IMG/VR virus record: IMGVR_UViG_3300030376_005550 | Location: 1-30,972 of that record | Source of the DNA: a virus | Taxonomy: Duplodnaviria > Caudoviricetes | Direction: 5' to 3' (one strand) | Length of the DNA: 30,972 nucleotides | Made by a program: the position numbers and the translations under genes | Notes under the pieces: model-generated | The model's database searches: none | What the model saw: only the letters and a program-made list of their open reading frames with translations | Told to the model about the DNA's origin: nothing | Shown: positions 7,338 to 11,531 of the stretch, in pieces | How positions within the stretch are numbered: position 1 is the stretch's first letter | Layout of the letters: every line of letters starts with the position of its first letter

Positions 7338-8183
7338 ATGAGAACCACTCTTCAGATACTCGATGAGCGTTTGGAGCGTGAGCAAGATGCCACCCATCGG
7401 CCGCACTTAGGTGCGTCCGGTGTTGGTGGTGAGTGCGAGCGCAAGACGTGGTATTCGTTTCGACACGCAAAGGCTCCGAACTTCAACGCCGAAACTCTGC
7501 GTAAGTTTGCCGATGGTCATTACAGCGAAGAGGTGGTTGCCGAGCAATTGGGGAAAGTTGTCGTTCTATCTGGTCGTCAGGCTCGTTTTCAGGACGGGCA
7601 CTTTGGTGGATCTGTCGACGGCATCATTGAGGCTGGACTAGTGGAGGCACCGGACGAGCCGCATATCTGGGAGCACAAGTGTGTCTCGGACAAGCGTTAT
7701 GATGAGCTTCACCGATTGCGTGAGCGTCATTCCCTTCTTAATGATGAGGGGTCCGTCCTTCTGAAATGGATGCGCACGTATTACGAGCAAGCTCAAATAT
7801 ATATGTACAAGCTTAAGCTCGATTGGCACTACATGACCATTGCGAGTGCAGGGTCTCGGCGTCTGCTCAGTTTACGCACGCCGTTGGATGAATACTACGC
7901 CAGGGAGATCGAGGAGAAAGCGCAACGCATTATCACCACGCGAGAGGCACCGCGCCGGATTGGTGACTTTGATTATTGGCTTTGTCGTTTCTGCGATTAT
8001 GCTGGCATGTGTCACAACAACGAGCAGCCAGACAAAAGTTGTAGAACGTGTCGATACTCGGAGGCCGTTCCAGATGGTCGTTGGAGTTGCAGCTTTTACG
8101 CTAAAGAGATCGACGGACGTGGTGACGAAAATAATTGTAAAGAGTACAGACGTTTCTTGGATGGGGGTCCAATCGTCGAATAG
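7338..8183 (+). CDS. Cas4-like PD-(D/E)XK exonuclease
   Basis: GASGVGGECERK (first Cys), GSVDGI, WEHK, QAQIYM and CRFCDYAGMC (three more Cys); start may be 7329. Confidence 0.85.
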   Translation: MRTTLQILDERLEREQDATHRPHLGASGVGGECERKTWYSFRHAKAPNFNAETLRKFADGHYSEEVVAEQLGKVVVLSGRQARFQDGHFGGSVDGIIEAGLVEAPDEPHIWEHKCVSDKRYDELHRLRERHSLLNDEGSVLLKWMRTYYEQAQIYMYKLKLDWHYMTIASAGSRRLLSLRTPLDEYYAREIEEKAQRIITTREAPRRIGDFDYWLCRFCDYAGMCHNNEQPDKSCRTCRYSEAVPDGRWSCSFYAKEIDGRGDENNCKEYRRFLDGGPIVE

Positions 8184-8301
8184 AATCGGAGAACGCTAAG
8201 CCATTCCCCCGAGGGTCACCGAACACGTTTCGAGAGGTGGTCCATACATGGATGGCTTGCGGCTCGAGGGGGCGCGCACCCCCTCGGGCATTGGGGGCAC
8301 A

Positions 8302-9072: not shown

Positions 9073-9267
9073 TCAGGCTTTGCGCTTTCGGAGCTTCGCC
9101 AGTGTTTGGGCAAAACGCGCACGCTGGCCCAGCTTGCCGCCCTTCTTCGCAGCCGCCGCTAACTTCTTAGCAGAGATCTTCTTTCCCGCCTTCACACCAA
9201 GCTGCTTACGCAAAGCACCCGGTTTCTTGATTGCATCCTTAATAAAGTTCTTTTTCTTTGCAGCCAT
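9073..9267 (-). CDS. small Lys-rich basic protein
   Basis: 64 aa, about 23 K/R versus 1 acidic; IKDAIKKPGALRKQLG...GKLGQRARFA; TGATG coupling. Confidence 0.85.
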   Translation of the reverse strand: MAAKKKNFIKDAIKKPGALRKQLGVKAGKKISAKKLAAAAKKGGKLGQRARFAQTLAKLRKRKA

Positions 9268-9371
9268 CACTTACCCTTCTTCGGGCCTTTCTTGGTGCCT
9301 TTCTTAACGGTCATCTTCTTCTTGGGTGGCCGTCCAACTTTGCTTCCGTATGTTCCTTTTCCTTGTGGCAT
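9267..9371 (-). CDS. 34-aa basic peptide with AT-hook-like GRPPKK motif
   Basis: MPQGKGTYGSKVGRPPKKKMTVKKGTKKGPKKGK; TGATG overlaps at both ends; not in the ORF track. Confidence 0.8.
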   Translation of the reverse strand: MPQGKGTYGSKVGRPPKKKMTVKKGTKKGPKKGK

Positions 9372-9628
9372 CACTTCTTCCCCTTCTTAAATGTTGATAC
9401 ATTGCGAGGCTTGCCACCACTAGGGAGACCAGCCTTGCGTTTACGCTTAACTGCGGATGTCTTCTGCGCCTTACTCATCTTCTTAGCTTTGGCTTTCGGT
9501 ACGCATTTAGGGTAGCCCTTGCCACCGGACTTCTTGCGGCCACACGGCGGGTGTGAGCCGTCCTTATTGGTGCGGCTAATATCTACCCAATCCTCATCAA
9601 ACCACTTTGCTAAACCTGTCTTAGCCAT
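9371..9628 (-). CDS. small basic protein with Cys pair
   Basis: GLAKWFDEDWVDI...PCGR...YPKCVP; TGATG overlaps at both ends. Confidence 0.85.
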   Translation of the reverse strand: MAKTGLAKWFDEDWVDISRTNKDGSHPPCGRKKSGGKGYPKCVPKAKAKKMSKAQKTSAVKRKRKAGLPSGGKPRNVSTFKKGKK

Positions 9629-9816
9629 CACTTGCCAGCCTTGCGTTTACGCTTAGTGCTGGTCTTCTGAGTGCGCCAAGAGCCGCCCATCTTCTTATAT
9701 TCCTTGACCGCATAAGCGTTGGCGTAAGCCGATGGATAAACATCAAACTTAGAACGAGCCTTGGCTTTTGCCCTGGACCACTTTGCTTTGTCGGTTGGAA
9801 CATTCTTCGTCGCCAT
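9628..9816 (-). CDS. small basic protein
   Basis: KFDVYPSAYANAYAVKEYKKMGGSWR core; TGATG overlaps at both ends. Confidence 0.85.
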   Translation of the reverse strand: MATKNVPTDKAKWSRAKAKARSKFDVYPSAYANAYAVKEYKKMGGSWRTQKTSTKRKRKAGK

Positions 9817-9989
9817 CACTTGCCTACTTTCTTCATGGCATCTTTATGAGCCTGCGTGAAAGTTTTGCCTGCACGCATTGACCTGCGCATCTCAGACATG
9901 TGCTTCTTCGTGTGATGCACCGAGTGAGATTTCAATGTCTTCTCTTGTCTTGCTGTTAGCTTCTTTGTCGGTTTCTTTTTTGCGGCCAT
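9816..9989 (-). CDS. small basic His-rich protein
   Basis: MAAKKKPTKKLTARQEKTLKSHSVHHTKKHMSEMRRSMRAGKTFTQAHKDAMKKVGK, 57 aa; TAATG overlap with the endolysin; not in the ORF track. Confidence 0.8.
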   Translation of the reverse strand: MAAKKKPTKKLTARQEKTLKSHSVHHTKKHMSEMRRSMRAGKTFTQAHKDAMKKVGK

Positions 9990-10534
9990 TAGATTTTAAT
10001 CCCCACGTCCAAAAGAGCTTCAAGGCGCTTGGTCTCAAGCTTATACTTTACTTCATTACGCATTGCGTTAAGGTCGAGGTGAGGACCAGGGCATTGCTTC
10101 TTGGGGTCACTGCTTGAACCTGGAAGCTCGGTGTGGCCGTGAATCGTTAGGCCATAACCGGCAAGCGCCGTAAGCAAATCAATCAATGCGCATTCTTGCT
10201 CATTGGTTGGAGCGTGCTTTGTGAAGTCACCGATGCAAGCAACCGACACGCTAGAGCTATTCCACTTCTTTGCATGGGGTCCGGTATCAGTCATTGGCAG
10301 GCATTGGTCGATGGTGCCATCTTTGCGAATGATGAAGGTGTAAGGCATTTGACCGCCAGTGTACGAGCCCGCCGCATATTTGCTGGTGTCCTTAAAGGAG
10401 CGGCTAATCTCTGGGCCAGTCTCGCCGAGTGAGTCGCCAACCTTATGCACTACCACTTTAGCAATCTTTGAGATTTCTCTCATGCGTGGCTTGCCGTCGT
10501 CGCACTCAGTAATCTTGTTGAGGACGTAGGTCAT
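9989..10534 (-). CDS. endolysin, N-acetylmuramoyl-L-alanine amidase (Amidase_2/T7 lysozyme-like)
   Basis: VVVH, YTFIIRKDGTI, GPHAKKWNSSSVSVACIGDF, IHGH and K.CPG zinc-amidase motifs; ATG at 10534 overlaps the upstream stop. Confidence 0.88.
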   Translation of the reverse strand: MTYVLNKITECDDGKPRMREISKIAKVVVHKVGDSLGETGPEISRSFKDTSKYAAGSYTGGQMPYTFIIRKDGTIDQCLPMTDTGPHAKKWNSSSVSVACIGDFTKHAPTNEQECALIDLLTALAGYGLTIHGHTELPGSSSDPKKQCPGPHLDLNAMRNEVKYKLETKRLEALLDVGIKI

Positions 10535-10797
10535 TTGCGGCTCTTCTTCCCGACGCACTTCCAGCGTTTGCGCGAAAGGTTTAGAGGAGAGTTTGGATCT
10601 TTGGCCGCTTTGGGGAACTTCTTCTTTTGTGCGGCTGAGCGTGCGCAATAGGCATCGCCCTTACTTGTCCCTGGTTTAACACGAGGACCGCCGCCCTTAG
10701 CTTTACCCGCCTGACCATAAGAGACTTTCTTCTTACGCCCGGTCTTGGGGTTCTTAACGACTTTTACTTTCGCTTTACCTTTTGCTGGCTTTACCAT
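10531..10797 (-). CDS. small basic protein with Cys pair (DUF6321-like)
   Basis: VSYGQAG...YCARS...AAKDPNSPLNLSRKRWKC; family name from recall only. Confidence 0.8.
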   Translation of the reverse strand: MVKPAKGKAKVKVVKNPKTGRKKKVSYGQAGKAKGGGPRVKPGTSKGDAYCARSAAQKKKFPKAAKDPNSPLNLSRKRWKCVGKKSRK

Positions 10798-11245
10798 CGC
10801 ACCCTCAGTCCGGCCATCGCGGCCCAGTCTTTCGCCCCGACGTGCCCCGTCGCAATCGCCTCCACATGCTCATTGATGCGAGCGGCAGCATCAAGAGTGC
10901 CGACGACGCCGCTGAGGCTGTTAGCACTAAGACCAAGATCGATCCGTCCACCGCTGTCTGGAACCGCTGCCAGCGCACGCGTTACTCTGCTTGTGAGCTG
11001 GCTTGCTGCTTTCCCGCTTCAGCAACCGCTTCTGCGCCCATGAGAGACGACTTAATCTTAGCACGACTATTGGCATAAGAAGCCCCGCAAACGGCACTTA
11101 GAACGCCACCAGCGAGCGTGAGCCACTGGTTATCGCCTTGCGACTGCTCAAGGGTTGCGATAATAATACCGGCAATCATGCCGACTAGGTTGAGCCAGAA
11201 CTCTGATGATTTAAATCCGTTAGTCTTGTTGGCTACGCTTGGCAT
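10791..11245 (-). CDS. predicted -1 frameshift product: holin-like N-terminus fused to a YadA-anchor-like four-strand beta domain (about 151 aa)
   Basis: In-phase G GGA AAG at 11015-11009; the -1 frame is open for 72 codons to TAA at 10791, overlapping the next ATG; it has no start codon near its 5' end. Confidence 0.65.
10969..11015 (-). promoter_or_regulatory. programmed -1 ribosomal frameshift signal (slippery heptamer plus stem-loop)
   Basis: GGGAAAG, a 6-nt spacer, then a GCCAGC-T-CAC...GTG-C-GCTGGC hairpin. Confidence 0.65.
10982..11245 (-). CDS. putative holin (two transmembrane segments)
   Basis: GFKSSEFW followed by two hydrophobic segments; 87 aa; upstream of the amidase; SD AGGGGG. 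Confidence 0.7.
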   Translation of the reverse strand: MPSVANKTNGFKSSEFWLNLVGMIAGIIIATLEQSQGDNQWLTLAGGVLSAVCGASYANSRAKIKSSLMGAEAVAEAGKQQASSQAE

Positions 11246-11531
11246 GTTCAATCCCCCTTTGAAATGCTAGGAACTCGCGGAACTCTTCGCGAAACTCGCA
11301 AACGTCTCGGTGCGTCCTAGCCATTTTGTCCCGCAGGTCGCCAATGTCTGACTCCATGCGATTGATTTTCTCTTCTACGATAGTGATGCGATTGCCCGTG
11401 TTCTTGACGTTATCGTAGACGGTTCCCCCGTTGGCCTTGGCTTTGCGCGTCTCGTAGACCCGCATTGCCCAAAGAAGGCTCATAGTCAGAACACCGGTGA
11501 TACCGCCGGAAGCAAGCGTCTCCTCCACCAC
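11220..11531 (-). CDS. membrane-anchored coiled-coil lysis-module protein (holin-like or i-spanin-like)
   Basis: N-terminal hydrophobic GGITGVLTMSLLWAM, then heptad-like RITIVEEKINRMESDIGDLRDKM. Confidence 0.6.
   Translation of the reverse strand: MVEETLASGGITGVLTMSLLWAMRVYETRKAKANGGTVYDNVKNTGNRITIVEEKINRMESDIGDLRDKMARTHRDVCEFREEFREFLAFQRGIEHAKRSQQD

Follow-up and report, generated by a model that had tools for sequence, protein, structure and literature searches.

How spanin-less phages breach the outer membrane of their hosts is an open question, and one survey recorded no spanin for 91 of 677 phages of Gram-negative hosts (PMC6139136). A virus record of 30,972 bases (88% complete by CheckV), analysed here at its full length and referred to as the window, brings this question down to a single small locus: a holin-like gene in the lysis region which carries a frameshift-type heptamer near its end, followed by an open -1 frame. 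The initial annotation had read the arrangement as a holin that acquires an outer-membrane anchor by frameshifting and thereby stands in for spanins. We ask here whether the frameshift is genuine, what it adds to the protein, and whether the product could do the work of a spanin.

The window encodes an SU10-type capsid protein with its adaptor, a primase-helicase and an Amidase_2 endolysin, and the sequencing runs holding the region came from marine or seawater metagenomes wherever a habitat was given. No cultured phage matching the extension, the holin-like gene or the capsid protein was found, and no host was identified; two GTDB matches considered as a host lead were discarded, each covering 22 residues in frames full of stops. 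The features of the locus are collected in Table 1. The gene upstream of the holin-like gene, for which family matches were weak and of the coiled-coil type only, is predicted to be a second holin-like partner with N-out/C-in topology. In seven near-complete relatives (96–100% complete), the order of a one-helix coiled-coil gene, the holin-like gene and the endolysin is constant—with the endolysin directly after the module or within about 2 kb. The endolysins that follow the module belong to Amidase_2, to Peptidase_M15 or to a third family recognised by a PHROG endolysin match, and since two different capsid families occur among the relatives' genomes, the module travels as one unit. The amidase gene is also flanked, on the minus strand of the window (9073–9989 and 10531–10797), by five small genes very rich in lysine (57–88 aa); two of them match halves of DUF5872, their number and order differ among relatives, and DNA-condensing or disruptin-like roles are candidates.

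Table 1. Features of the locus, in window coordinates.
Feature	Coordinates	Strand	Basis or remark
Upstream 103-aa gene	11220..11531	-	One N-terminal hydrophobic segment, then basic residues and a probable coiled coil
87-aa two-helix holin-like gene (0 frame; 9.0 kDa)	10982..11245	-	ORF and helix prediction
TGA closing the -1 frame, three codons before the extension	11019..11021	-	
Slippery heptamer G_GGA_AAG, in phase	11009..11015	-	
Stem-loop, 6 nt after the heptamer	10969..11002	-	Folding and close-clade covariation
-1 frame extension, 72 aa	10791..11009	-	Helix, Pro turn, four strands, beta-signal-like C-terminus; YadA-anchor-like
Nested 57-aa ORF	10805..10978	-	0 frame, +1 relative to the extension; GTG two codons past the holin stop
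Lysine-rich 88-aa gene overlapping the end of the extension	10531..10797	-	Position not conserved
Endolysin, Amidase_2	9989..10534	-	E 4e-15

At the slip site, the sequence agrees with nearly every detail initially reported. The holin-like gene reads GCG GGA AAG with eight sense codons left, so that GGGAAAG lies in phase; the -1 frame is closed just upstream by a TGA and then runs for 72 codons that translate to exactly the peptide given in the initial annotation. This frame offers no early start (the first ATG, GTG or TTG is codon 49) and stops inside the beginning of the next gene, overlapping its ATG by 7 nt. The intergenic gap that the extension was said to fill is present, although it measures 184 rather than 185 nt. 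If the shift occurs, the predicted fusion product has 151 aa and 15.4 kDa. Across eight phage records, G_GGA_AAG or A_AAA_AAG was found in phase within the last 30 codons of 10 of 368 ORFs, and because 7 of these 10 are this very gene (against a background of 3 in 361 other ORFs) the heptamer is not there by chance. Contigs from two further studies cross the site without an indel, and the one-nucleotide assembly error that might have mimicked a frameshift was rejected accordingly. One metatranscriptome contig covers positions 10882–11041 and is uninformative on expression, and an SD-like word located 5–20 nt before the slip site occurs in 56 of 90 copies—a count with no null comparison—and not in the window. 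Polymerase slippage was considered as well and, by reasoning only, is unlikely for G_GGA_AAG.

With the extension and the holin as queries, viral and metagenome contigs yielded 132 loci, many of them redundant; 133 loci including the window were examined, and 15 cut at their 5' side were set aside to leave 118 testable. Within this redundant, extension-recruited set the strict in-phase heptamer was present at 116 of 118 loci, the two others being 3'-cut, with the heptamer visible in another alignment view. Reverse recruitment with a holin profile yielded 67 loci: 39 combine the heptamer with a barrel-like -1 ORF (38 complete, at 65–79 aa, and one cut), one holds a chance heptamer and 27 have none. 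Once copies that were incomplete or ambiguous had been removed, along with one locus whose end is aberrant, the pooled set comprised 90 distinct extensions in 14 clusters under 60% identity. Heptamer, phase and -1 ORF (65–79 codons) are kept in all 90 of these distinct complete copies from marine phages, with 75 carrying G_GGA_AAG, 11 A_AAA_AAG, three A_AAA_AAA and one A_AAA_AAC. The two commonest types each appear in several branches of the holin tree, and every switch of type requires coordinated changes in two codons. In-frame fusions are absent from the 118 testable loci, and a search of proteins of 203–2000 aa also returned none, which is weak evidence; a further search at 35–202 aa gave 101 matches, and among the 24 sequences inspected the long ones were miscalls of the upstream frame and a further one was a chimera whose start is unrelated. 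The locus is a conserved module and not an assembly error. Conservation and the coordinated switches between G_GGA_AAG and A_AAA_AAG strongly support the -1 frameshift interpretation, and on this comparative evidence we regard programmed -1 ribosomal frameshifting at the heptamer as highly probable.

A reading in which no frameshift takes place—the extension being an independent small gene that has its own start, or arising as a by-product of the nested gene—could appeal to the gene callers, which annotate products of 57–71 aa from internal GTG or TTG codons in relatives. Yet no start codon is conserved in the -1 frame, where the first one moves from codon 49 in the window to codon 69 in L011; moreover, the heptamer is kept through coordinated changes, and conservation is stronger in the -1 frame than in the nested one. 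We give this reading next to no credence.

Two irregular cases deserve mention here. In the singleton P0028, helix 1 of the holin is joined to the -1 frame and the barrel with helix 2 skipped, the result of a deletion or an assembly artefact. Holin and extension halves are also shuffled when L001, L005 and L006 are set against the window (holin 51% with extension 93%; holin 94% with extension 62%), which suggests recombination at the conserved block of slip site and hairpin.

The hairpin was recovered where it had been described, folding at -15.2 kcal/mol. Taken alone, the window's hairpin does not stand out: 14 of 200 shuffles fold equally well (z -1.54). Among 12 distinct close sequences—which are related, and onto which the structure of the window was imposed—93.5% of cells are paired and 4 of 9 pairs show two-sided change, as against 0–1 of 500 shuffles. 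The fold beats shuffles (z at or below -1.9) in just 4 of 16 sequences and is no better than they are (z above -0.5) in 7, being weak in distant clades, so the hairpin is probably not a universal stimulator. The holin stop is located in its loop and the GTG of the nested gene in its 3' arm, a placement that suggests translational coupling.

That nested gene had initially been set against the extension, on the assumption that conservation of the 0-frame ORF would exclude the -1 ORF. This either/or proved wrong, as both are conserved side by side. With the extension protein fixed and synonymous codons resampled, a nested ORF that starts at most 8 codons from the holin stop, stays open for 35 codons or more and encodes a hydrophobic segment is expected in 0.12 clusters and was seen in 12 of 14. 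The two missing clusters have, respectively, a double stop followed by an ATG and a hydropathy of 1.5 against the threshold of 1.6. Under the converse null, which keeps the nested peptide constant, 2.3 of the 14 clusters are expected to have an open -1 frame and all 14 do, a figure partly built in by the choice of copies that have the extension. At every divergence the -1 frame is the most conserved of the three, and substitutions at its codon positions 1, 2 and 3 number 2041, 600 and 2913. The nested product begins with a basic N-terminus, contains a single hydrophobic segment and ends in a variable tail of 1–31 residues, which is short and basic in the window. By these codon-level tests, two overlapping frames, the -1 extension and the nested 0-frame ORF, are under selection, and the locus likely makes three products of 87, 151 and 57 aa. 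Stop-codon readthrough into the nested ORF is disfavoured: the holin stop varies (TGA 39, TAA 26, TAG 25), and in one clade an ATG is preceded by two stops.

As to what the -1 frame encodes, AlphaFold (with a 16-row alignment) predicts a helix at residues 2–14 followed by four strands, with a pLDDT of 72. The anchors of Hia and YadA occupy ranks 1–4 when this model is compared with the PDB by Foldseek (E 0.074–0.17), and YadA-type phage adhesins come first among viral models (best E 0.0074), with nothing at E 0.001 or better in Foldseek. A wide VIA search was not discriminating—its top hit, at Z 7.1, is the barrel of the autotransporter NalP and falls within the range of common arrangements, with Hia at Z 5.2 and rank 13—and a PDB sequence search with the extension gave no match. 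The YadA_anchor family of Pfam, to which the extension had been likened, is indeed its only family match, but a weak one (5 of 23 members, best E 0.012, none for the copy of the window). Atlas leads for the extension are BCSC_C, DUF7840 and Phage_OMP. In hhalign comparisons with a profile of 11 phage-encoded YadA-type anchors, the extension scored 89% and 93% (E 2e-6 and 3e-7, pairwise), with collinear alignments from the Pro turn through the last Trp. Lipid-facing residues alternate, and the C-terminus reads G-x-x-hydrophobic-x-W/F in 90 of 90 copies, part of the set having been recruited with a pattern holding the Gly, with the penultimate Phi position aromatic in just 5. This end is close to the BAM beta-signal, G-x-x-Phi-x-Phi (PMC13067283).

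Modelling three copies together gave a predicted trimer with a score of 0.57 (best control, 0.01), contact agreement of at least 91% and a pLDDT of at least 72 across runs; in a calibration on a task different from the present one, 20 of 30 solved homodimers attained this mark, compared with 1 of 23 monomers. The prediction pairs strand 1 with the neighbouring chain's strand 4 (interfaces were reported for one copy, which has two), in keeping with the trimer foreseen at the outset and with autotransporters, in which each chain contributes four strands and three helices run through the pore (PMC5670179). The trimer may be a recall of solved autotransporter structures. Predicted fold, Foldseek ranks, trimer model and hhalign scores together support the YadA-type interpretation strongly, and a distant homologue of autotransporter anchors is, in our judgement, very likely. 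An adhesin was rejected as an identity for the protein, which has neither signal peptide nor passenger and consists in its N-terminal part of a two-helix membrane protein. Separately, a 90-aa gene of Yersinia phage TG1 (L213:1492-1764), annotated as hypothetical and located 125 nt after the previous gene, consists of a YadA-type anchor only.

The carrier of the extension has the build of a class II holin—small, near the endolysin and with two helices. Its two hydrophobic helices, the acidic loop and the invariant Arg61 and Lys65 after helix 2 are the reasons for which N-in/C-in topology is predicted, and the difficulty raised in the initial annotation stands: the basic residues after helix 2 are predicted to place the tail in the cytoplasm. 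No holin family matched significantly (best PHROG holin, E 0.014; Pfam Phage_holin_1, E 0.19; Atlas, 0.81), and we infer the identity of the gene from its anatomy and context. Helix 2, with 41–53% Gly/Ala/Ser, is the weaker helix in 14 of 18 homologues by a crude, approximate insertion-energy estimate.

Slip-less relatives of the holin mostly have, directly after it, a small protein with a hydrophobic start overlapped by a lipoprotein, a layout described for overlapped spanins (PMC6139136). A lipobox within 600 nt of the holin stop was found at 14 of 23 slip-less and 1 of 35 slip loci (8, 15 and 17 versus 0, 1 and 1 under three rules), counting loci with at least 400 nt downstream and using an insensitive scan; the single match at a slip locus lies inside the nested ORF. 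In a tree of 40 of the 67 loci, built on the first 70 residues, one branch (93/96) separates slip from slip-less genes, and since the slip genes form one side of that branch, the contrast in lipoproteins amounts to one evolutionary event. The slip-less partner pairs are only spanin-like, with a best PHROG match to an Rz-like family at E 0.027. The statement that no lipoprotein spanin lies nearby held up, in that no convincing one was found, in a window that is 88% complete, and no conserved lipobox exists in the module; a relaxed genome-wide scan gave 2–4 matches per record, chance-like by eye except in G004. The spanin-substitute role has circumstantial support from this dearth of convincing lipoproteins and from their presence in slip-less relatives, although the latter contrast counts as one event.

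Several spanin-type candidates were examined and rejected. A two-component spanin lacks its o-spanin lipoprotein here. An i-spanin with a periplasmic coiled coil fits neither the nested tail of 1–31 aa nor the upstream gene, in which the basic residues follow the helix instead of preceding it, and a unimolecular spanin would need an N-terminal lipoylation signal and a C-terminal TM helix, which the product does not have. The plus-strand lipobox at 8008 (119-codon ORF 7840-8199) lies inside a Cas4-like exonuclease gene and is probably due to chance. In G004, a 104-aa lipoprotein-like gene (L221:11953-12264, minus strand) located 2 kb downstream of the module is credible; it has no obvious i-spanin partner and no Pfam match. 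T7-like podoviruses (L182:2492-3061, L199:2495-3034 and similar) carry a slip-less relative of the holin with an overlapped pair of small protein and lipoprotein between the scaffold and major capsid genes, an unusual site for lysis genes.

The explanation that we favour, and on which we are evenly divided, is that the module acts as a lipoprotein-free spanin substitute, in which a minority of frameshift fusions tether both membranes through a trimeric outer-membrane barrel. Most ribosomes would make the 87-aa protein, a putative holin, and some would slip at G_GGA_AAG before the hairpin to give the 151-aa fusion, as the conservation of the site suggests. Ribosomes stopping in the hairpin loop would likely restart two codons on and produce a 57-aa single-helix membrane protein; the selection on its frame is detected, and its translation and role are putative. 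The tail, predicted to start in the cytoplasm, would most probably reach the periplasm only after the inner membrane is holed, or through release of the weak helix 2—the weakest step of the scheme; helix release is known from pinholins. BAM would then insert three tails as one 12-stranded barrel, with a tether back to the inner-membrane anchor of 43 residues from helix 2 or 67 from helix 1. In autotransporters, the chain preceding the anchor is drawn up through the pore, and a similar draw would bring the two membranes together after degradation of the wall. Behind this proposal stand the observed sequence, conservation, two-frame selection and context, along with modelled fold, trimer and topology; frameshifting, export and function would follow from them. 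More tentatively, and with more doubt than conviction, we consider the whole of a wider reading: a new outer-membrane lysis machine in which a 264-nt holin gene plus 190 nt would yield a holin, a single-helix accessory and a holin-autotransporter fusion. In this wider reading, BAM would insert the barrel only after the holin lesion, the autotransport stroke would winch the inner onto the outer membrane, and the machine would have replaced a conventional lipoprotein spanin pair a single time and spread through marine phages of podovirus-like and long-tailed type.

A real frameshift could also serve regulation, with a trimerising tail in the cytoplasm or inner membrane turning the long form into an antiholin or nucleator made at a fixed ratio. 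Lambda has such a holin/antiholin pair in S105/S107, made by dual starts. The predicted N-in/C-in topology, the missing signal peptide and the trimer prediction accord with regulation, as does the fact that G/GT-type frameshifts set product ratios; a regulator, however, does not obviously need a barrel, the beta-signal-like end is kept in every copy, with alternating lipid-facing residues, and slip-less relatives have a lipoprotein in the same slot. We consider this unlikely, and equally so an outcome in which the fusion reaches the outer membrane without fusing the membranes—weakening or permeabilising it, jamming BAM by way of the beta-signal, or mediating adhesion or exclusion—with another factor breaking the outer membrane. 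For the latter speak the homology to adhesin anchors, which many phages encode (98 records), the short linker and the five small basic genes nearby in the window as disruptin-like candidates. Those basic genes, though, are not beside the module in G002–G005, neither passenger nor signal peptide is present, and the module keeps its place in the lysis region whereas the endolysin is exchanged.

Considerably less probable is that the nested single-helix protein is a miniature i-spanin binding the barrel, which would mirror the Rz1-in-Rz arrangement with the roles swapped. Its nested +1 architecture is selected well above expectation, a basic N-terminus precedes the helix, and embedded spanin pairs are common (PMC6139136); the tail of 1–31 residues, on the other hand, is basic and poorly conserved, with no coiled coil. 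This role is compatible with the spanin-substitute explanation if the nested protein is merely accessory.

Set beside known systems, the extension resembles the trimeric autotransporter anchors of YadA, Hia and EibC (PF03895) in its helix, Pro turn, four strands, terminal aromatic residue and predicted strand 1–strand 4 trimer. Unlike them, it has no Sec signal peptide or passenger, is joined by frameshift to an inner-membrane protein, falls below the Pfam cut-off and carries a conserved Lys/Arg at position -3. The heptamers are of the same classes as those of the lambda G/GT frameshift and of dnaX (A_AAA_AAG), similarly close to the gene's 3' end, and both types are highly shift-prone in E. 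coli according to a frameshifting review (PMC5009743); unlike those cases, the slip lies in a lysis-region membrane gene and adds a membrane-targeting domain. The word "holin" is absent from the 300,000 characters examined of that review. As proposed, the fusion is a single chain anchored in both membranes, like the unimolecular spanin T1 gp11, but with N-terminal inner-membrane helices and a C-terminal barrel in place of the N-terminal lipoprotein and C-terminal helix given for T1 gp11 (PMC6139136). Like embedded or overlapped Rz/Rz1 pairs, the module occupies the slot between holin and endolysin region and uses nested frames, whereas it has no lipoprotein and no periplasmic coiled-coil i-spanin. 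A likeness of build only links it to LysF1a/LysF1b, an 88-aa two-helix N-in/C-in protein paired with a one-helix N-out/C-in protein (PMC13056207), and to Lcc6 of LambdaSo, an extra 65-aa membrane lysis factor (bioRxiv 2024.01.23.576932); the abstracts of both mention neither frameshift nor barrel. Searches of the openly accessible literature returned no description of a holin-barrel frameshift system. The parts are known; their assembly belongs to neither spanin class nor to the adhesins, and it is new in anatomy, with a putative function.

Concealed behind a frameshift and a nested frame, the module escapes gene callers, and it offers a small and directly testable candidate for how spanin-less phages open the outer membrane. 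Should the proposal be true, phage frameshifting would extend from virion assembly to lysis, and an autotransporter anchor would be in use with no signal peptide. Were the spanin role to fail, there would still be a conserved three-product gene to explain, one whose beta-barrel tail is recoded. Finally, a 120-aa tail-protein gene of G004 (phrog_2115; L222:10304-10663, minus strand) has an in-phase G_GGA_AAG near its end and a -1 ORF of 113 codons—likely an ordinary tail chaperone frameshift of the G/GT type, so that this long-tailed relative would use the same heptamer twice.
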